A stretch of DNA of 64,000 bases from Schmidtea polychroa (taxonomy: Eukaryota), in contig CM097885.1 in NCBI GenBank assembly GCA_044892525.1, positions 17,362,001 through 17,426,000 on the forward strand, in the 5' to 3' direction. Positions 20,921-32,669 of this stretch are shown here, piece by piece. Both the position numbers and the translations under genes were made by a program. Position 1 is the stretch's first letter. Each line of letters begins with the position of its first letter. Below the pieces are notes generated by a model. That model did not search any database, had not been told where the DNA came from, and saw only the letters and a program-made list of their open reading frames with translations.

Positions 20921-20944
20921 AACAACATTTATTAAACATCAAAT

Positions 20945-21265
20945 TTTTTATACAACAACCAAGCTAAACAATGTTGACCACATGTTTGGGTCAATGGATT
21001 TTGAAACATAGTTTTATTATACACGATAGGTTTCCCCATTGTTTGTAGTTGGGTAATAAAAACCCATAGGATCGAACACGAATATATTACCAGGTTTCAC
21101 ATATATAGCTATCCAATGTTCTCCACCAAGATGAGAAGATTGAGTATTGACGATTATTGCTTGATTATTGCTCAAATATAGAATTTTATCAAGAGGAAAA
21201 ACTCCTACAAATTCATTTCCCAATATTTGTTTTTCAATTCGATTAACCTGAACAGAACTACTATA
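20945..21265 (-). pseudogene. Polinton adenain-like cysteine protease, frameshifted near the C-terminus
   Basis: FVGVFPLDKI, AIIVNTQSSHLGGEHWIAIY, FVFDPMG; a downstream frame gives QNPLTQTCGQHCLAWL with the catalytic Cys. Confidence 0.85.
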
Positions 21266-21326
21266 ATAAATCCTGAGTATAAAAAACAACTTACTCCATG
21301 ACAACGTTTTGTGTGTCTGTATACAT

Positions 21327-21482
21327 TTATACCAACACTGTTCTATTTGAAGTAATTTGAACTTCATTTTCAAATACTCCATATATTATAACATGTACCG
21401 GTTCAGTACTGGCTTTTGCAAACTTTATATCCAGTCGTAAATTTCCATTTTGAGGTAATTGACTCTGATTTAAATCAAAATC
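21327..21482 (-). pseudogene. C-terminal remnant of the Polinton major capsid protein
   Basis: Manual translation FDLNQSQLPQNGNLRLDIKFAKASTEPVHVIIYGVFENEVQITSNRTVLV* matches the Polinton MCP C-terminal pattern; the rest is replaced by Gypsy sequence. Confidence 0.7.
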
Positions 21483-21486
21483 TCTG

Positions 21487-21900
21487 ATGGACAAAGTAGA
21501 CAAGCAAAGAGATCAGATTAACAGTATGAAAAGTTACACCAGAGTGGTCTATCAGGAACCACAGAGAAGAGTACAATACAAGAAGAAAGAACAGAGAGAA
21601 GAAAGTATCCGAAGAGAAATGCCAGAAGGCTGGTTATGCCACAAAATAGGACACACGAAAATTGATTGTCCAATAAAAGGTAAAATAGAATGCTGGACAT
21701 GTCATAGAAGCGGACATATAAGTAGAAACTGTCCAGATAAAAAAGCTCCAAGATGTTTTGGGTGTGGGAAAGAAGGTCATATAAGAAGATTGTGTCAGGA
21801 AATACGTTGTGAAAGATGTAGCAGAAATGGTCATAGATCCGAGGAGTGTTATACAAAGATGAGGTACGGGAGAGCGACGGAGAGACAAAGATTCACGTGA
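21487..21900 (+). pseudogene. gag: Gypsy Gag C-terminus with CCHC zinc knuckles
   Basis: CWTCHRSGHISRNC, CFGCGKEGHIRRLC, CERCSRNGHRSEEC. Confidence 0.9.
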
Positions 21901-22049
21901 AACAGATACAGTCGGATAAATGGTATCGAGGAAGAAGAAGAAAGGGAATCGTGTGTAGAGACAAATGAAGATAATTTTAGGAAGACGTACCCAAACAACA
22001 TGGCTCCACCAGTAGAGGAGTTGGTTGGAGCCATATTCTAACAGAAAAT

Positions 22050-25000
22050 TTGATGGGATATCCTCAAGGGGCAGAAAAGTGGGAGAATGTTGGAAGGGTA
22101 AGCGAGAAAGTATACAGGTTCCTAAAGAGAGAAATGTTTGAAGAGGAAGTGGAAAGAATTGGAACCATTGAAACGGAGCAGGTTGTTGAAATTTTGTATA
22201 ACAGAATGCAAGGAAGGCCTAGTATAACAGTAAGGATGAATGGGGAAAATTTCGACTGTTTATTAGACACTGGGGCAAGAACCAATGTAATGAGTGTGAA
22301 CTGTTTTAACAAGCTACGAGGACAACAATTGACGAAAAGTGACGATAAGTTACGATGCGCAAACGAGAGTACGATCGAGACAATAGGAAAAACGAAGGTG
22401 CAAGTAACCATTGGAAATGTTTCGAAGGAAGTTATATTCATTGTGGCGGAGAAAGTGACACCAGACGTGATTGGAGGAATCGAATTACAAGAAACATTTG
22501 GATTTAGACTGTTAAAAATTAAAGATATCGAGGCTAGTGAAAAAGACAAGAACTATATTTGGAACATTGAAGCAAAATTTGGCAGAAAAATAAAGGATGA
22601 CGAACGATTAATACGAGCGTTGGAACAGTTAAAGATCAATGAAGATAGCAAATTAAAGGAAATTATAACAAACAGTGGAAACGTGTTTATGGCAGATAAA
22701 TGGGATGTGGGTCACACACATTTGGTAAAACACAGGATAGTTACAAGAGGTGAGCCGATAAGCATAAAACCATATCGCCAACCACTAAATTTGGAATCAA
22801 AGATTGAAGAAGCAATACAAAATTTGTACGAAAATGGAATTATACGGAAATGTAACTCCATGGAATACACCGCTAATATGTATATGGAAAAAAGAGAAAA
22901 AGGATATTAGACTATGCTTGGACTTTAGACAGCTGAACGCGGTAACAGAGAGGCAGGCATTTCCAATGCCAAACATAGACGAGATGTTGGATTTGTTAGG
23001 ATGATCCGTCTTTTTCAGTTCAATCGATCTAGGTAATGCATATTACCAAGTGGAACTAGAAGAAGAATCACAGGAGAAAATAGCTTTCTCAACAAAGAAT
23101 GGACAATATTGTTTCAACAGAATGCCGTTTGGAAATGCAGCAGCACCAGGTACGTTCCAAGAAATGATGACAAAAGTATTAGGCAAAATAAAGGGAGCAA
23201 TGGTGTATTTGGACGACATCTTGATTTATTCAAGCAGTAAAGAGAAACACTATACAATACTCGGAGAAGTGTTAAAAGCGATTGAGGAAGCAGGCTTAAG
23301 GATTAATCCAGAAAAATGCCAAATAATAAAGAAAGAAATCAGATTCTTAGGACACATAATCAGCAAGGAAGGAGTACAGACAGATTCATCTAAAATTCAG
23401 GCCATACAGAACTTTGGGAAGCCTAATTGCGTAAAGAAACTCCGAAGCTTTTTAGGTATTTGCAATTATTATAGAAGATTCATCAGTGATTATGCAAAGA
23501 AGACAAGAATGTTAGAACAATTATGTAGCAGACCAAGTAACAAAAAATTAGAATGGAGTGAAGGAACGAATAGCGTGTTTGAAGGATTGAAATTAGCACT
23601 CACGACGGCGCCAATCTTATGTTTTCCGGATCTGAAAAAGGAGTTCATTTTAGATACCGACGCTAGTTTCGATACCATTGGAGCAGTACTTTCACAAAGA
23701 GATAAAGATGGAAAGGAAAGAGCCACGAGAAAGGATATTGTATTACAAGAAAGGAACTATTGGCGGTATATTATTTTTGCATTCATTTTAAGCACTATCT
23801 CTACGGAAGAAGATTCACGCTCAGGACAGACCACAAGGCAATCACGTTTATGATGACAACCAAGAAGCCGATTACTTCACAATTCCAAACATGGATCAAT
23901 TATTTGAGCAGTTTAGATATAAGAGTAGAATACAGAAAGGGTATTAATCACCAAAATGCAGACATGGTGTCGAGAACTAAATGTGACACGTGTGTTCAAT
24001 GTCAAATGGCCCACGAAGAAGCTAAGAAAGGAAAGATAAAAACAAGATTACTAGACTCGATCAGAGAAGAGGGAAGAAGCAACATCCAACATGGAATTGT
24101 AGAAGTACGAAAGAAAACGATGATACCTGAAAATGAGTTACAAGAAACAATAAAGGAAATACATAGACTATTGTGTCATGCTGGAGTCGAGAAGATAGCC
24201 AATTATATGAAAGATAGATATGTTGGAAAACACATGTGGAGTAAGATTCAGGAGATTGTTCGAAGTTGTGAGATTTGTCAAAAAACCAAGGCTTTAACAA
24301 TAACAACGAAAGAACCAGTAAAAAGACAAGATTCGAAGGAAATGTTCGAAATTATATTCGTGGATATATGTGGAGCGTTGGCAGAAACAAAAGGAGTTAA
24401 GAAGTATATATTGGGCATAATAGATCAGTATAGTAAGTATCAAGTCTTGACAGCGATAACAAAACAAGACGAAGAAACAATAAAGAAAACGATTTTAGAA
24501 AAGTGGATTTTAAGATCTGGATGCCCAAAGGAGATAAGAGTTGATTGCGGAAAGGCGTTTGAATCAGGAATGATGAGAGAATTCACAAAGATGCTAGATA
24601 TTAAATTATATTTTTCGAGTCCATACCATCACCAAACAAACGGTCAGATAGAAAGACAATTCAGGACAATACGGGATTTGATAAATGCTACTTTACAGGA
24701 TAAAAAGAAGACGGATTGGGCAGAGATAATACCAGAAGTCGAATTCACTTTAAATGCAACCAAACAAAAAACGACAAGGAAAAGCCCGGCAGAGATAGTT
24801 TTTGGAAAAAAGATTAGCAGGGAAAAATGGTACGGGTCCAAAGAAATACCGATAAAGGAAGAACTAGAAGAACAAACAAGGAGAAAATTCAATGTAGGAG
24901 AAGAAGTATTAGTAAAAGTAGAAACACGCCACAAGGGCCAGGACAGGTATGAAGGTCCGTACAAAATGATAGAGAAAGTGCATGACAGACGATACATCTT

Positions 25001-25064
25001 AAGAAATGAAGATGGAAAAAGGATCGAAAGAAATGTGGAAATTTTCTTAAGAAGGGGGATATGA
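22050..25064 (+). pseudogene. pol: Gypsy Pol (PR-RT-RNase H-IN), broken by frameshifts and a stop
   Basis: LLDTGA; LCLDFRQLN; RMPFG; YLDD; LDTDAS; HRLLCH...CEIC; VDICG, VDCG, GQIER; GPY. Confidence 0.92.
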
Positions 25065-25307
25065 GGAAGTTTTATGATGAAGAAATTTTTAAACTGAAAA
25101 TTTTAAAAATTAAAGTTTAGATTAATTTTTAAAAAAACAAAATAAGAAGATATTTTAATTAAAAATATCTTCGTAGAAAATTTGTTTAAATAAGAAAGAT
25201 TAAGGAAGATATAATTTGATTTTGATATTTATTGAAATAAAATTTATGGAAACAAAAACTGATTTTAATGTTTTTCAGGATGAACCTCCATACTAATAAT
25301 ATCAGAA

Positions 25308-26363
25308 TTAGCCATCTACTTTACGAAAATGAGTTTTGGAACCTTTTGGAAAGTTTATAAGTTTTCCACTATCATCACGAATATTTATTTCTATATTGTT
25401 TATACATGAACTTGCTATTGGTAAATACATGGGATTATCGATATTTATATTGACAACTTCATCATGTTCATATTTGCCAATCCATACCGATTTCAAAAGA
25501 GGAACACAGGAATCACCAACAATTATGGGTTCGATAATGTTAGTATATATGAACATTTGTTGATGATGTTCTAGTATTCGTGGTTTGCGTATACCAGTCG
25601 ATTTTTCTCGATATTTTTGCTTATCTAATCCAAGTGAATTTGTCAAATTTTTATCAAATGTAACTTCGCAAATATCATCATTCAAACTGAAGGTAAACAT
25701 CAAATCTTTCACAATTTCCAGATTTTTAAATATGTGTGAACAATTGAACTTTAAATATTTAAGTAAATCATCAAGTTTATCAAAATATAATTCATCAGCA
25801 AAGGTGAATGATTCTTCAACTTCATCATTATACGACACAGATATTTTGATTTCTTCTTTCACTATACTGTTTGCTTCAAATAGATTAAAACGTAATAAAT
25901 ACTCGGTCTCCGTAACAATATTTTTCAACTTATTGCAACCCATTCGTTTGGCATCTTCAATAGTTTCGAATGTTATTGTAAATGGTTTAAAATCACAACT
26001 GATATTTAATCCATCCTTGTAAAATATATAGCAATGCGAATCTAATATTTGATTCGGAATATGATATGTTTTATCATAATTACTGATAACAAAGATACCC
26101 CTACATGTTTTCATAATATTCCTTTTGAAATCAATCTTACATTGACTATAAAATGGGACTGTGTTGTACACGAATGTAAAATCTTGCAGTGCAACTTCCC
26201 AGTCACCATTTAAAGAAATCGGATTCTGGAGATTGACCATAAATTTACTGGCTTGATTGTCTGGATGAATTAATGGGCAACTATTGCTCGGTAAAATAGT
26301 ATAAAAATTCACTTTACTAGGTCTTTTGCAGATATCCATGACGGGTTTTGATAACCATGCCAT
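25308..26363 (-). CDS. Polinton minor capsid (penton-like) protein
   Basis: FYTILPSNS...L.GDWEVAL N-terminus; IYTNIIEPIIVGDSCVPLLK...IEINIRDDSG...HFRK C-terminus; the true start may lie downstream of the ORF-track ATG. Confidence 0.8.
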   Translation of the reverse strand: MAWLSKPVMDICKRPSKVNFYTILPSNSCPLIHPDNQASKFMVNLQNPISLNGDWEVALQDFTFVYNTVPFYSQCKIDFKRNIMKTCRGIFVISNYDKTYHIPNQILDSHCYIFYKDGLNISCDFKPFTITFETIEDAKRMGCNKLKNIVTETEYLLRFNLFEANSIVKEEIKISVSYNDEVEESFTFADELYFDKLDDLLKYLKFNCSHIFKNLEIVKDLMFTFSLNDDICEVTFDKNLTNSLGLDKQKYREKSTGIRKPRILEHHQQMFIYTNIIEPIIVGDSCVPLLKSVWIGKYEHDEVVNINIDNPMYLPIASSCINNIEINIRDDSGKLINFPKGSKTHFRKVDG

Positions 26364-26906
26364 TTGACATAGTATTGTTTATCCTTGCCGACCTTTTTAG
26401 TTTTCAATATTTTTTGAATTCCTGCTCATAAAATTTCCCTTGTACAATATTATTATCACTGTCTTTGATGACATACATTACAGGATTCTGTTTAGTATTT
26501 ATTTTTGAAATTACAAAGACTTCATCACTCCAATTTGTATCAAAATTTTTAATAAATGGTGATGCACTAATTTTACTAATTCTAACATGGTCACCGACTT
26601 TATATTTAGGTTTTGTAATTTTTACAGATTTCTTAGAAGTCAATGATGTTTTTGATATAATATCAACCGGTCTCAATCCATTCAGTCCTCGATGTGATGA
26701 ATGATTATAACTTGTTATTATTTTCGGTAAAGCATTTACCCATTTTTTATTACCTTGATGCACGAACAATTTCTTTAATCTATCTCTCAATGTTCGATTA
26801 AATCTTTCAACAGGGCAGCTTTGTATTGAGAATGTACCGAGTAGTGATTTATTTTCAGTTTATCGAGGATTTGCTTAACTTTGCTATTGTAGAATTCTTT
26901 ACCTAA

Positions 26907-26965
<59 letters not shown>

Positions 26966-27353
26966 CCAAATCTGTTTGCAAGTTATTAGGATGTCCATCT
27001 TTAAATCAACTATTAATTGCCTTGGACATTTCTTCTGCAGATTTTGCCTTGACTGGTATTGCTCGTGCAAACCTGCTGTATACATCAATACATGTTAAAA
27101 TATATTTATACCCATTGTTAATTTTCGAATAGGGTATCATCTCCATCAAAACTATTTGCCATAAATCGTCAATACCAAATGTTTTATAGGCTCTTGTTGG
27201 AAATCTTTTCCGCATTGGTTTGTTCAAACTGTACGCAAGCTGATCTGATAACCACTCCTGGGTTTCTTTTTTCGAATTCGGAACTCTTTTGTTTAAATTT
27301 GCCACTCCACCGAAACCGGCTTCATCTTCTGGGTTCATCCAAATCTTCTCCAT
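26300..27353 (-). pseudogene. Polinton retroviral-type (rve) integrase, frameshifted, with a probable intron at 26965-26903
   Basis: WLSDQLAYSLNKP, YKYILTCIDVYSRFA, QTDLG/KEF, YNHSSHR, KYKVGDHVRISK, NWSDEVF, GKFYEQE. Confidence 0.9.
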
Positions 27354-27414
27354 TACAGCAAGAAGATTTAAAATTAAATTTAATGTCGGGCAATGAAGGA
27401 TTAGCACCCATTGT

Positions 27415-27810
27415 TTATGATTGATTTCCTACAACTCCACCTAATAATGATAATGCCAGAGGTATCAATGCACCAATAAATCCACCTTGTTTTTTATATA
27501 TAATTTTCCTCATTTGCTTACGATTTTTATTATTTACTAATGATAATAAAGGTTTCCTATGTTTGCTCAATAAATGCTTTTTTGATTTACTGATTTTAAT
27601 CTTGCCTTTGACTACTTTAAGTATAATATTGAGTAAATCATCGACAACAAAATTTGGGAATGATTGCAATATATTCATTCTTTTCATACTCGGGGCCTTT
27701 AACAATGCATTAAAAAATGGAAAACTGCGATGATTTTTAACTACTTTTTTACTGATTTTACATTTACTGGTTTTACGTTTAGGTTTAGGATTTTTCGAAA
27801 TAAGATTCAT
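27415..27810 (-). CDS. Basic Polinton core protein with an adenovirus pX-like C-terminus
   Basis: Lys-rich 131 aa ending KKQGGFIGALIPLALSLLGG, resembling the GGFLPALIP motif of adenoviral pX. Confidence 0.7.
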   Translation of the reverse strand: MNLISKNPKPKRKTSKCKISKKVVKNHRSFPFFNALLKAPSMKRMNILQSFPNFVVDDLLNIILKVVKGKIKISKSKKHLLSKHRKPLLSLVNNKNRKQMRKIIYKKQGGFIGALIPLALSLLGGVVGNQS

Positions 27811-27944
27811 TGCAGAAAACTTTCAGTAACAAGTTTTTTAGATGGTGTATAACTAGTTGTTGGTGGAACTTTTGGAACTTTAATACTCTTTAATACTTTT
27901 TCTTAATTTCCTAATATTTTTCACCCTTGCTTTTAAAAACATTA

Positions 27945-28582
27945 TTCATAGAGGTTTTCAACTTTGTTTATAAACCATGGCACCTTTTGGGTTGAAAATA
28001 TCTGTTTACTCGTAAATCATCGGGACATTGTTGTGTGAAATCAAGAAATATATATCCATGAGGTATTTTTGTAGCATCTTGAAATGCACTGATAAGAAAA
28101 TTACGATTGTTAGGGTATGCTTGACGTGCAAGAAAATCAATCACTGTTGCATCTCTAGGATTCTTGAAAATAACTAAATATTGTACATTTAAATTACGTG
28201 TTCGATGTGCCCCACCTTGATGAAATAGATTTTGTGTTATGAAAATAACTGTTACACCGACATGTCTGCTGATCTTTGTAAATAAATTATTAAAATCTTT
28301 TTCTTTATTAGCTTCTTAATACAAATCATCGATAATAATGACATCACCTTTCTTTAATCGGCTGGACCAGTTTTTATCGAATCCCTTTACTATTTTCATG
28401 TTTTTTAATTTACAGAAACTTGATTGAGTTAATCCATGTTCTTCATCAGCACCCCTATGCCAATAAATCCTGTTGAATTTTGATTTGAATAAATTTGATT
28501 TTAGTAATTTACAAACAAATATTGTTTTTCCACTACCACTCGGACCAACGATTTGGTATACTGCATCATTTCTTAATTCCAT
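27945..28582 (-). pseudogene. Polinton DNA-packaging ATPase (A32/FtsK-like) with an in-frame stop at 28316-28318
   Basis: Walker A IVGPSGSGKT, Walker B VIIIDDL; after the stop SRHVGVTVIFITQNLF...YLVIFKNPRD...HGYIFLD. Confidence 0.9.
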
Positions 28583-28685
28583 TTCAAAAATTTTAAAAAT
28601 ATATGTGTATTTGTTTATATTCGATGCTTTAATGAACTCGTACTCAATTTGTATATAATGACTAATTTTCATAAATGATTTAATA

Positions 28686-29111
28686 ATGTTAGCAAATATA
28701 AATTATCGAGGAAATTTTGATGTAACAAATATGAGGTTCCCACCAGGAAAACCCCAGCAAATTATCGATAGAAGCGGGAAATACCCGATAATATTTTTCA
28801 AGACTGGTTAATGTAGAATCATGGGATGTAAGAAACCCTTGGATATTAATAAATTACAATATCGAATAAATAATATTATAATCCAATCAATTACCGTTAC
28901 TATGGATATGGGACATATTATCAATCTATATAACATGTCGAAAAAATGTGATTGTATGTTTGAACCGGAATTGTTTCCGGCACTAAGACTATTAAATATA
29001 TTCAACGTGTTTGCTAGTGGAAAGGTTGTCATGCTAGGGTTGAGAAATTTGGAGTATGGGGAATATGTTGACAATGTTCGAAATGTGATAATTTCATTGG
29101 TCAATTTCTAA
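28686..29111 (+). pseudogene. Compact TATA-binding-protein (TBP)-like gene, one in-frame TAA at 28809
   Basis: Two TBP-repeat signatures: IIFFKTG*CRIMG and FEPELFPALRL...NVFASGKVVMLG. Confidence 0.7.
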
Positions 29112-29229
29112 TTGGTTAATTTCTAATTGGTTAATGTTTGTTTTAAACAATATGTTTTCTGTTTAGAAATCATTTATTCAACAAAAATGTACAACATACA
29201 AAGTTCCGCAATCACCTCAATGAAAGAGC

Positions 29230-29265
29230 ATGCAAATTATGGTAATTTCAAATTTTTATTATTAC

Positions 29266-29322
<57 letters not shown>

Positions 29323-29676
29323 ACATATGAATATCAATCAATTATCCTGCAAAGATTATGCTTCTACTATTATCCAGAATTAAATGAAATTCTACAAGAT
29401 AGAGATCCAGCTATCATTCCGGATTTGGTATACAACCAAACACGAATCAGGATATTCGATATAATAAACACCTTTCTATTGGATATCAAGATAGGAAGGG
29501 TGATGAAAGAAATGAAACCAGAGGATCCTTGCATTTTCGGATGTAGCTGTTGCAATTTCCGTTATCAACAATATGTTGAATGGTGTTTGGTGAACTCTGA
29601 GAAATCACCACTCGAGTCAGATTGTATCAAAATAAATTTTTATGTTGAATTGTTTTGTTTTTGTAAATCGAAATAA
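29230..29676 (+). CDS. Unknown Polinton ORF; the (TA)n stretch is probably intronic
   Basis: ORF with CIFGCSCC; GTAATT donor-like site before the TA microsatellite. Confidence 0.35.
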
Positions 29677-29938
29677 TAGAAATAGAAATAATAATAGTAA
29701 TAAAAATAGTGATAATATAAGTAATAATAGTAATATTAGAAATAATAATAAAAAACAATATTTATAATAAAAACATTAATGCAACATTTATGCAAATGAC
29801 ATGCAATTTAAACAAAGACATGCTATAATCTGATTGGTTGATAGGCATGAGTCAAAGGTATAAAAACCCTGTAACATTTCATTTTAATCATTATTTACGA
29901 CGATCAAGAAAATTTCATGCACCGAAAAACCTAAAGAA

Positions 29939-30310
29939 ATGGTACAACCAGTTCAAATGTTCCACAACTACAAAATGTATTTTTTGAAAGAAGAAATCAA
30001 TATGAAATTGGTTGCACCCGTCAAGCTAATTCCAACTAAATTTCAATTCTTATCCGGCACGCTTTCAATATTAGATGTTAAAACTATTGATGATGTTTTT
30101 AAACGGCTAGATTCGAATCTATCGTGTAATCAACATGCCTGGTTCAACAAAAGATATGCAAGATTTTATGATGGTTTTGATGAAATCGGTTTCAAAGAAA
30201 ATGAAAATTGGTATATAACAATTGCAATCCAGGGATATAAAGTTGATAATAATGATGTATATTCCCCTATTTGGAAAATTATGTCTGCTAGACTATCACA
30301 AATATTTTAA
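29939..30310 (+). CDS. Unknown Polinton ORF (123 aa)
   Basis: Open frame preceded by CTGATTGG (CCAAT box, reverse), TGAGTCA and TATAAAA at ~29830-29866. Confidence 0.45.
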   Translation: MVQPVQMFHNYKMYFLKEEINMKLVAPVKLIPTKFQFLSGTLSILDVKTIDDVFKRLDSNLSCNQHAWFNKRYARFYDGFDEIGFKENENWYITIAIQGYKVDNNDVYSPIWKIMSARLSQIF

Positions 30311-32669
30311 CTATAAATTTTATAATATTCGACTATGTTTTTAGTTAACCATGATTTGTGATAGAAATTTGAAATTATATAATTGTTGGGCTAGAACTGA
30401 CTTCTAGACCCAAACTTGAATTGTGACTGAAAGGTGCAGGTACACAACATGCAAAAGCAAGAAGTTTAGTTAAATATGAAAATTACATCAAATAAACAAT
30501 ATTAACTAAAGGAGAAAGTAACAAAAACCTAAAACACAGAAATTAAATAAAATTATACAAAAGCAAGAAGTGATGCAAAAATAGAACTCAAAAACAACCA
30601 AATAAACACAGATAAGCATAAAACAGACTCGAACAACTTAAAAGACGATAAAAACCGAAAAAATTCCAGAAAAGCCCAGAACATTCCATTAAAATGGCGA
30701 TGACCATCACAAAAGCCAGCTAGAACAATAAAAGTTAGAGGAAATAAATAAATTAGTATTAAAAATAATAAATCTTAAAAAGAAATTCACAAAACATCGG
30801 TTAAAATAAAAATTAAATTAAAAGCAAAATAGAATGTTCTGGAACCGTTCCAAATCCATCATGGACGGCAAATTAACGAAAAATAATTAAAGAATAAAAA
30901 TATAAAAATAAAAACAAAAATTATGGCACAAAAATTGTCATTAAAAATAGCAAAATCGTAAAATAGAAAATTCTGGAATAAAAAGAATTCGAGTTTGTTT
31001 TAATGCATCAATACATACACGTGTACAAAATAGGTATATATACCGACACGTTTCGGTCATAAATCAATCTTTATGCCAATATTTTGCTGAAAAATTATTT
31101 TGGAGAATCATTAGTAAGCCTTTTGATTTGTTGTAATTTTATGTTATGTAATTATATTAATATCGACCTTTTATCTATTAAAAATATTTTTAAGATTTTA
31201 TGTTTAGTAATTCTCGACGGATCAGCGGCGTCCGAGTACGTCTCTGATCGGTCCTGCATATAATTTTAAATTCGATTTCTCATGCACACATGCATTATGA
31301 TTATCTATAACACTCTTTTTTGTTCGGGTCAGTTCGGAGGTCGAACTACTTCATGGTCCTGCCATGGAGTTAGGTCGAGGAAACCCTCCGCCTGACTCTT
31401 TGTATTTATGTAAGGTCGACCGTAAATGGTTGACTCAAAACTCAACACTAAGGTTTGTGGAAGTGGTCACAGTGGGGCCATGGAAGCAATATTCTTCCCG
31501 ACCTTGCACGTAATACAAATTTAAAATCAACATTAAAAATCCATGTCAAATATCTCTACAATAAGGTCTTAATCTGAGTAGAACTCATACCTAATCTTAC
31601 ACAATTCTACAATCACCTTAATGAAGTCGGTTGATCAATAATAGCAATTCCAGTTGTACTTAAACATATGCCGAATCCGGTTTTGGTAATAGGAATTTAT
31701 AGTAACTCAAAGTAATAGAAATGATATAGTGTCCGGCATAGGTGTAGGTATAACTTCATCTAGTTGGGAATTCGAGGTTAATTACTATGTGAATAAAATC
31801 AGTCTACCTATAGATATTACAAATCTAACCGACTAAATTACAAGCGCCATCTTAAAAATTTATAAAAATATAAGTACTTATTACAAAATTTACTAATTAT
31901 AATCAAAATGCAAGTTGTAGATAATTATAAGATTTCAGATATAAAGCATACCGACCCTGAAACTATAAATTGGTAATGGAGAAGTCTTGATAACAAATTT
32001 TAGATGGGGATAGTAGTAGATAAATTTTAGCATAAGGATCAATTAACTTAGAACTAGTTATGTATAGACTGTATATTCGTCAATATTCTGAAATTATAAC
32101 CTAATAGTACCAAGAAATCTGCAAATAATTTCGGAAGACAATGTTGATAAAAAAGGGGTACTCGTAAAGAAGTACACGAGTCGAATATAAAATTATAATC
32201 CCTGAATTCTGAAATGACGAGTGGTGAAGTAATAAAGTGACAAATTGTAGAAATAGAAAACGAAAAAATTTCAAAGTACAAACTCATAAATAAAATTATA
32301 AAATATAGAATTAGAATTTATAGAATATAAACTTATGAATAGAAAAAATTAAAAAACTATAAATTATAAAATATAAAATTGGCAATTATAAAATATAAAT
32401 TTATAAATTACGAAATATAAAATTATAAATTGTAAAGTATAAAATTATAAAGTATAAAATATAAAATTATAAAATATAAAATATAAAGTCATAAATGATT
32501 AAATTACAGACTATAATATATATAATTAGAAATTACAAATTTATAAATTGGAAAATAGAAAATTTTAAATTAGAAACAGAAATTTGTAAATTACAACAAG
32601 TAACTTCCTAAATCATAGAATAGGAACCTCTAAAATGGGAAATATAAACTTCGAATTGTACCATATAAA

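Follow-up and report, generated by a model that had tools for sequence, protein, structure and literature searches.

The window (the whole 64,000-nucleotide stretch of DNA analysed here) contains a truncated relic of a Polinton, in which a decayed copy of a miniature TATA-binding protein (TBP) gene lies head-to-head with a packaging ATPase gene (Table 1). The earlier note had described a frame of about 140 codons with a single TAA and both TBP motifs, some 100 bp from a divergent ATPase start, and both descriptions proved accurate: the frame consists of an ATG plus 141 codons with one in-frame TAA, and 101 bp separate its start from the ATPase ATG at 28584 on the minus strand. When X was placed at the stop, the frame matched the Pfam TBP family (PF00352) with an E-value of 1.1e-10 (41.6 bits, cut-off 22.9), and all 29 matches up to E 10 in a PDB sequence search were TBPs or TBP fusions. 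The copy measures 426 nt versus 438 nt in open copies, with 409 of 426 aligned bases identical. This window copy of the mini-TBP gene is a pseudogene and cannot make the full protein.

The surrounding element is equally degraded. The ATPase, pVII-like and integrase frames are all broken, a Gypsy-type insertion has taken the place of most of the capsid gene, and the Polinton is interrupted at 30384 by a giant LTR element; neither the polymerase nor a terminal repeat of the Polinton was found within the 64-kb window. The window copy retains the box discussed below (ATAAAC) before the ATPase, basic protein, integrase and minor capsid genes. The pVII-like label of the basic gene is our assumption, and we take its neighbour to be the minor capsid (penton) gene partly from its position. 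As to the two insertions, the decayed Gypsy-type element (about 21483-25288) carries gag zinc knuckles, protease, reverse transcriptase and integrase, and the giant LTR element (30384-64000, about 33 kb, with LTRs of 806 nt that are 99.75% alike) has ORFs for gag, pol, a viral fusion glycoprotein and MATH/TRAF, BIR-RING, RING and ankyrin domains.

Table 1. Coordinates of the relic Polinton and its promoter words in the window
Feature	Position	Strand	Remark
Mini-TBP gene, decayed copy	28686..29111	+	Stop in frame at codon 42; open copies are 12 nt longer
Host-type TATA box TATATAAT	28652..28659	+	34 nt upstream of TBP start; assigned from sequence
TATAAACA box, candidate late promoter	28612..28619	-	34 nt upstream of ATPase start
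A32-like packaging ATPase	27968..28584	-	Broken, stop near 28316; Pox_A32 E 2.8e-7 on an open copy
TATAAACA box before basic pVII-like gene	27965..27972	-	Within ATPase 3′ end
Basic core-like (pVII-like) gene, broken	27415..27945	-	Without Pfam match
CATAAACA box before integrase region	27412..27419	-	
Retroviral-type integrase with chromodomain, frameshifted	26312..27428	-	
GATAAACA box before minor capsid-like gene	26376..26383	-	
Minor capsid (penton)-like gene	25308..26378	-	Without Pfam match; label partly from position
Major capsid gene, 3′ remnant	21330..21482	-	Capsid identity taken from open gene
Adenain-type protease	20935..21385	-	Peptidase_C5 E 7.8e-6
orfA, variable ORF 3′ of TBP	29224..29676	+	
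orf141, conserved neighbour in one subclade	29888..30310	+	Canonical TATAAAAA upstream at 29859-29866

Further copies were sought in the same genome (781 Mb) with the 99 residues downstream of the stop, and the best 150 of 3655 candidates were scored. All 150 were 90-100% identical, and 136 of them, judged by eye, carried an uninterrupted 154-codon frame, a share that overstates intactness because these are the best-scoring matches. Among 29 other top copies that were fetched, 24 were open 145-codon genes of equal length with a mean difference of 1.2%, and all six copies fetched with their flanks turned out to be complete Polintons of 16.6-17.3 kb, so that the intact copies in related Polintons for which the earlier note had proposed a search do exist. 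Each of the six has terminal inverted repeats of 656-832 bp (97.0-99.7% identical), AG..CT ends and a 6-bp target duplication. One strand encodes, in order, a polymerase-like ORF, protease, major capsid, minor capsid, integrase, basic protein and ATPase, and the opposite strand encodes the TBP followed by small ORFs. Pfam recognised the integrase (rve E 1.7e-5, Chromo), the ATPase (Pox_A32 E 2.8e-7) and the protease (Peptidase_C5). The double-jelly-roll major capsid was identified through its Atlas neighbours (0.98, PF21738 clusters) and by hhalign to a PF21738 protein (83.6%, E 8e-6); its gene gave no direct Pfam or PDB match. The ORF of about 1400 codons that adjoins the left repeat, which we take to be the polymerase, had Endonuclease_7 in its C-terminal part as its sole Pfam match. 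The terminal inverted repeats contain tandem words (locus L115:6011-6667 and locus L121:5984-6639) that are presumably AP-1/CRE-like. Contigs from runs presumed to be RNA span the stretch and carry no strand or start information.

Other Polinton families of this genome encode TBPs that are 53-62% identical, some of them beside ATPases that are 88-97% identical (L150, L153, L155, L157, L159, L161, L163, L167); this disparity indicates that the TBP arm has been exchanged between families.

The fold check proposed in the earlier note also came out in favour of a TBP. An open natural copy, folded together with 93 homologues, was predicted with a pLDDT of 96 and a pTM of 0.83 to form a two-lobed saddle, all 145 residues of which align to residues 66-240 of yeast TBP (Z 13.3, rmsd 2.4 Å for the predicted model); across cellular TBPs (yeast 1ytb, human 1cdw, archaeal 2z8u) the likeness amounts to Z 13 and an rmsd of 2.4-2.7 Å. 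Foldseek returned 44 matches at E<=0.001, and every one among the matches listed was a TBP. The mini-TBP shares with its cellular counterparts three of the four intercalating Phe, the FxxG turns and the C-lobe Glu-Pro-Glu stirrup. It differs from them in size (145 versus about 180 residues), in sequence (21-26% identity), in the lack of a Phe99 equivalent, in polar residues at several base-reading positions, and in the N lobe. In the model this lobe keeps its strands and has no helix of at least four residues, and the alignment gaps place the losses at H1, which is gone, and at most of H2, which is vestigial. The short forms thus do not have both helices in each lobe, whereas long forms of the clade do. 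According to the text of a TBP survey (PMC7221094), TFIIA, TAF1, Mot1 and Brf1 bind the basic patch of H2, and TFIIB is bound by two Glu residues of the C lobe that have diverged in other viral TBPs. In the short forms these stirrup Glu residues are kept in 90 of 93 and 92 of 93 sequences; in long forms the first is less conserved (18 of 27).

The DNA face has been altered in a consistent manner. Residues are numbered here as in yeast TBP, a numbering that is in part our own assumption. Among the 93 short forms the intercalating residues F116 (92), F190 (93) and F207 (93) are retained, with no conserved aromatic at the F99 site, and the replacements V122 to Arg (92), T124 to Met (93), L205 to Asn (93), N159 to Ser (89), V161 to Thr (87), I194 to Arg (91) and V203 to Cys (93) are nearly or fully fixed. 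Short and long forms share V122 to Arg, T124 to Met, L205 to Asn, N159 to Ser or Thr and V161 to Thr; the short forms additionally show V71 to Asn, and I194 to Arg and V203 to Cys are also short-form changes. The residue equivalences were taken from the sequence alignment rather than from model coordinates, with the numbering set from positions given in PMC1636458; as described there, the altered-specificity yeast mutant TBPm3 is changed at three sites, I194, V203 and L205. Two observations count against a late factor of altered specificity: I194 and V203 are variable among the 27 long forms, which have only L205 of these sites fixed and whose relatives share the box, and the conserved phosphate contact Arg196 is lost in the mini-TBP. 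The mini-TBP gene is conserved within a Polinton clade, and the DNA specificity of its product has probably changed.

A protein search retrieved 108 homologues at 37-63% identity plus one near-identical sequence, mostly of 144-190 residues and all with PF00352, and a search of cluster representatives gave 111 at E<=1e-10. Metagenome loci were represented by the best 80 of 175 matches, 39 of which carry a Polinton hallmark gene (25 of the 34 that are at least 3 kb long); in these loci the TBP stands on either side of the ATPase or follows the protease or the polymerase. The mini-TBP is 22-34% identical to host TBP paralogues (in local matches) versus 37-63% to TBPs from unrelated datasets. In a 32-row tree, with which a quick 60-row tree agrees, Polinton-type TBPs form one clade (support 100/99) on a long stem, and the short forms form a subclade within it (100/98); some Polintons carry long forms of 163-189 residues with the N-lobe helices kept. 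Grouping two own-genome Polinton TBPs with six host TBP rows was rejected (p-AU 4.7e-8), which excludes a recent capture from this host. Joining the whole Polinton clade to all host rows was weakly rejected (p-AU 0.022), and joining it to three fast host paralogues was not (p-AU 0.14). The host has a canonical TBP and at least five further TBP-family genes, some of them intronless and fast-evolving (L141-L146). A scan of viral contigs with the TBP alignment yielded one giant-virus-like locus with an ordinary TBP, and scans of viral contigs with ATPase and capsid queries gave no matches.

Ratios of dN/dS were 0.21-0.41 for seven between-family pairs of this genome (dS 0.9-1.9, near saturation), and 0.19-0.49 for five metagenome pairs. 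Three close pairs, which differ by few changes, gave 0.09, 0.16 and 0.80. Judged from these sequence comparisons, the gene is under purifying selection in an old Polinton-borne clade. The word "captured" in the earlier note holds in a very old sense only.

Promoter words were counted in the 100 nt upstream of each placeable start codon, in loci of this genome and of metagenomes, after near-copies had been removed at 70% identity. ATAAAC occurred upstream of all 25 ATPase genes versus 2.2 in dinucleotide shuffles (maximum 7), mostly at –31 to –49 with a mode at about –35, and was preceded there by T (18), C (6), G (1) or A (1). It was likewise found upstream of 12 of 12 major capsid genes (shuffled 1.2) and, with starts as called, of 10 of 13 minor capsid (1.1) and 5 of 7 integrase genes (0.6), as well as of one pVII-like and one protease gene (n=2 each), 0 of 4 polymerase genes and 3 of 17 orf141 genes. 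The minor capsid and integrase starts that lack it, the small pVII-like and protease samples and its occurrence at a few orf141 genes count against the scheme proposed below. Before ATPase genes, reverse-strand ATAAAC was found in 0 of 25 cases and GTAAACA in one of 25.

TBP genes themselves were preceded by ATAAAC at chance level (5 of 59; shuffled 3.7) and by host-type TATA words in 34 of 59 cases versus 15.5 in shuffles. These TATA words lie at a distance similar to that of the box and have C at position 7 in one of 46 matches; a complex of host TBP with C at this box position has been solved, according to the title of entry 1qn3, which counts against the scheme proposed below. So does the presence of TATAWA at –60 to –20 in only 29 of 54 TBP genes.

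An origin of the box as a by-product of protein coding was rejected for the ATPase gene, where the box is non-coding, and is unlikely for the capsid gene on grounds of codon usage: there the box overlaps a small basic ORF, always as the codons ATA-AAC, with a joint chance of about 1e-10.6 over 10 elements that are not independent. The box also persists in elements from other datasets whose ATPases are 35-38% identical and which must have other hosts.

A second Polinton family of this genome, without a TBP match in the stretches scanned, served as a control. In this family the box was found at 0 of 10 gene starts (–100 to –15) and at 0 of 28 capsid starts, after two loci of the original 30 had been set aside for misplaced starts. 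Because the control comprises one lineage only, and its promoters are of a quite different type, it does not isolate the TBP as the cause, and no element that lost its TBP within the Polinton-TBP clade was found. In the TBP-less family (L169, L175, L126, L171, L192-L221) an AT-rich run immediately precedes the genes, with AAA-ATG at the junction. Such starts resemble poxvirus late starts and may mean that transcription depends on a helper.

No neighbour gene common to all TBP loci was found among the loci compared. A conserved ORF of 155-190 residues with an acidic N-terminal motif, which we assume to be exonuclease-like, is present in 25 TBP-carrying loci and sometimes duplicated (e.g. L066:505-1026), but it has no Pfam match and is absent from the family of the window; orf141 is confined to one subclade. 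No obligate partner gene was found among these neighbours. The predicted fold of orf141 (pLDDT 91) had as its best Foldseek match the phage Enc34 ssDNA-binding protein (E 0.03, prob 0.96, TM 0.44, a weak match), and on this modelled likeness orf141 is a possible Polinton SSB. It lies behind a canonical TATA box and words that we take to be CCAAT-, octamer- and AP-1-like, and its homologues seem to be spliced in some loci. Polinton-borne TFIIB was not detected among the 21 PF00382 matches in this genome, of which the 10 fetched were all host genes. Intronless TFIIB-like genes of 301-310 codons form arrays at L138, L139 and L164 (C1 at about 23.85-24.19 Mb; C3 at about 38.2-39.1 Mb), and some of these genes lie on a repeat unit of 7.9 kb.

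In size, repeats, AG..CT ends, 6-bp duplication, integrase, A32-like ATPase, protease, double-jelly-roll capsid and long polymerase-like ORF these elements resemble known Polintons/Mavericks (adintoviruses), whereas the Polinton papers examined describe neither a TBP nor a dedicated promoter word. As far as the text of PMC12529657 describes them, KSHV ORF24 and EBV BcRF1 belong to the viral TBPs of beta- and gammaherpesviruses, which use a TATTWAA late box. As in the Polinton system, a TBP fold whose DNA face is polar is encoded by the virus itself, structural genes stand behind a variant TATA box and earlier genes have conventional promoters; the Polinton word, ATAAAC, is a different one. ORF24, as the same source presents it, is large and multidomain, binds RNA polymerase II itself and needs five viral partners (PMC12529657), whereas the Polinton protein is a bare 145-residue saddle that keeps the TFIIB stirrup and for which no obligate partner gene was found among the loci compared. 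The fold match to BcRF1 was weak (E 0.03), and the relation to the ORF24 type is one of analogy, not membership. TBP-like proteins of Nucleocytoviricota, with BFVD matches down to E 2.8e-8, have likewise lost the eukaryotic N-lobe regulatory surface, and the survey text describes their TFIIB-binding Glu as diverged and the proteins as often paired with a viral TFIIB (PMC7221094). The Polinton TBP, in contrast, keeps the Glu, and no TFIIB of the element was detected in the search described above. In the tree, Nucleocytoviricota TBPs, whose viral labels were partly guessed, fall outside the Polinton clade.

Taken together, the mini-TBP is probably a Polinton-specific late transcription factor of altered specificity that reads ATAAAC(A), a candidate for a role like that of herpesvirus ORF24 at its TATT box. 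From the fold, the conservation, the box and the control we infer DNA binding, use of TFIIB and timing along the following lines. Host machinery would first transcribe the TBP gene from an ordinary TATA box; the Polinton TBP would then bind the variant box ATAAAC(A) via its changed DNA face and would recruit host TFIIB and RNA polymerase II via the retained Glu-Pro-Glu stirrup. Packaging and capsid genes would thus be driven from the box, an early-to-late switch made by one protein, and loss of the basic H2 surface may have freed this protein from TFIIA, TAF1, Mot1 and Brf1. The earlier note had suggested a basal transcription factor for the element's own expression; a role in the element's own expression is indeed likely, while the generic character implied by "basal" does not fit a DNA specificity that has probably changed.

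The box might instead be read by a host factor (forkhead, the host TBP or one of its paralogues), with the Polinton TBP binding DNA elsewhere, at a replication origin, in packaging or on episome chromatin. ATAAACA does fit the forkhead consensus, the extra TBP-family genes of the host offer further candidates, and the correlation between box and TBP rests on one TBP-less lineage. Against these points stand the chance-level frequency of GTAAACA, usually the strongest forkhead word, for which a forkhead reading of the box was rejected; the strand specificity of the box and its distance from the start codon, the same as that of the TATA boxes of TBP genes; the retention of the TFIIB-binding Glu pair; and the persistence of the box in elements that necessarily have other hosts. 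We consider this explanation rather unlikely.

A protein that keeps its TFIIB stirrup and has shed the TFIIA/TAF1/Mot1 surface also has the look expected of a dominant-negative TBP, so the Polinton TBP could act as a decoy or repressor that dampens host transcription by sitting on host TATA boxes or sequestering TFIIB. This seems improbable, given that the residues which read TATA have been replaced on the DNA face in a fixed pattern and that the same elements carry a matching private box. It is barely conceivable, finally, that the gene is a recently captured host TBP retrocopy carried along as a decaying passenger. The broken window copy and the intronless TBP paralogues of the host would fit such a history, and an old origin from fast host-like paralogues was not rejected; yet most fetched copies are open, own-genome Polinton TBPs do not group with the host clade, and purifying selection acts across a broad clade in other Polintons. 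Recent capture is refuted by the dN/dS ratios and the tree tests.

With regard to prior work, the literature covered on Polinton or adintovirus TBPs and promoters yielded one figure label; Repbase and most subscription papers lay outside this scope, and prior annotation may exist. That label, in the legend to Fig. 5 of Starrett et al. 2021 (PMC8502044), marks a "TBP" gene "similar to TATA binding proteins" in some element with an adintovirus-like polymerase; the accessible text of that paper comes without family, structure, distribution or promoter, and the gene may or may not belong to the present clade. There is no mention of Polintons in the text or searchable supplements of the TBP survey PMC7221094, and word searches of PMC11131425, PMC10748475, PMC11296320, PMC12220804, PMC10675990 and bioRxiv 2026.06.19.733378 returned no Polinton TBP.

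The window copy is dead, but its family probably has a one-protein late transcription system, and this system is open to direct assays, in which the DNA words to compare are TATAAACA, CATAAACA, TATAAAAG and GTAAACA. The box can serve as a quick marker in the sequence by which Polinton genes are classed as early or late, and the Polinton TBP, as a natural minimal TBP with probably changed specificity, may serve to probe which TBP surfaces are needed for RNA polymerase II initiation. We see an even chance that a large Polinton branch runs its early-to-late programme on the smallest known orthogonal transcription system, consisting of one 145-residue TBP, its own promoter word and host TFIIB, and escaping TFIID, TFIIA and Mot1. 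Polintons would then be split between nuclear self-sufficient viruses (TBP plus ATAAACA) and a second type whose AT-rich boxes abut the start codon and which would depend on some other machinery. A defined regulator with a matching, defined DNA word is an argument that a genuine viral programme has been retained in this clade, and together the TBP and its box bear on how animal Polintons time particle production and on whether they need a helper virus.
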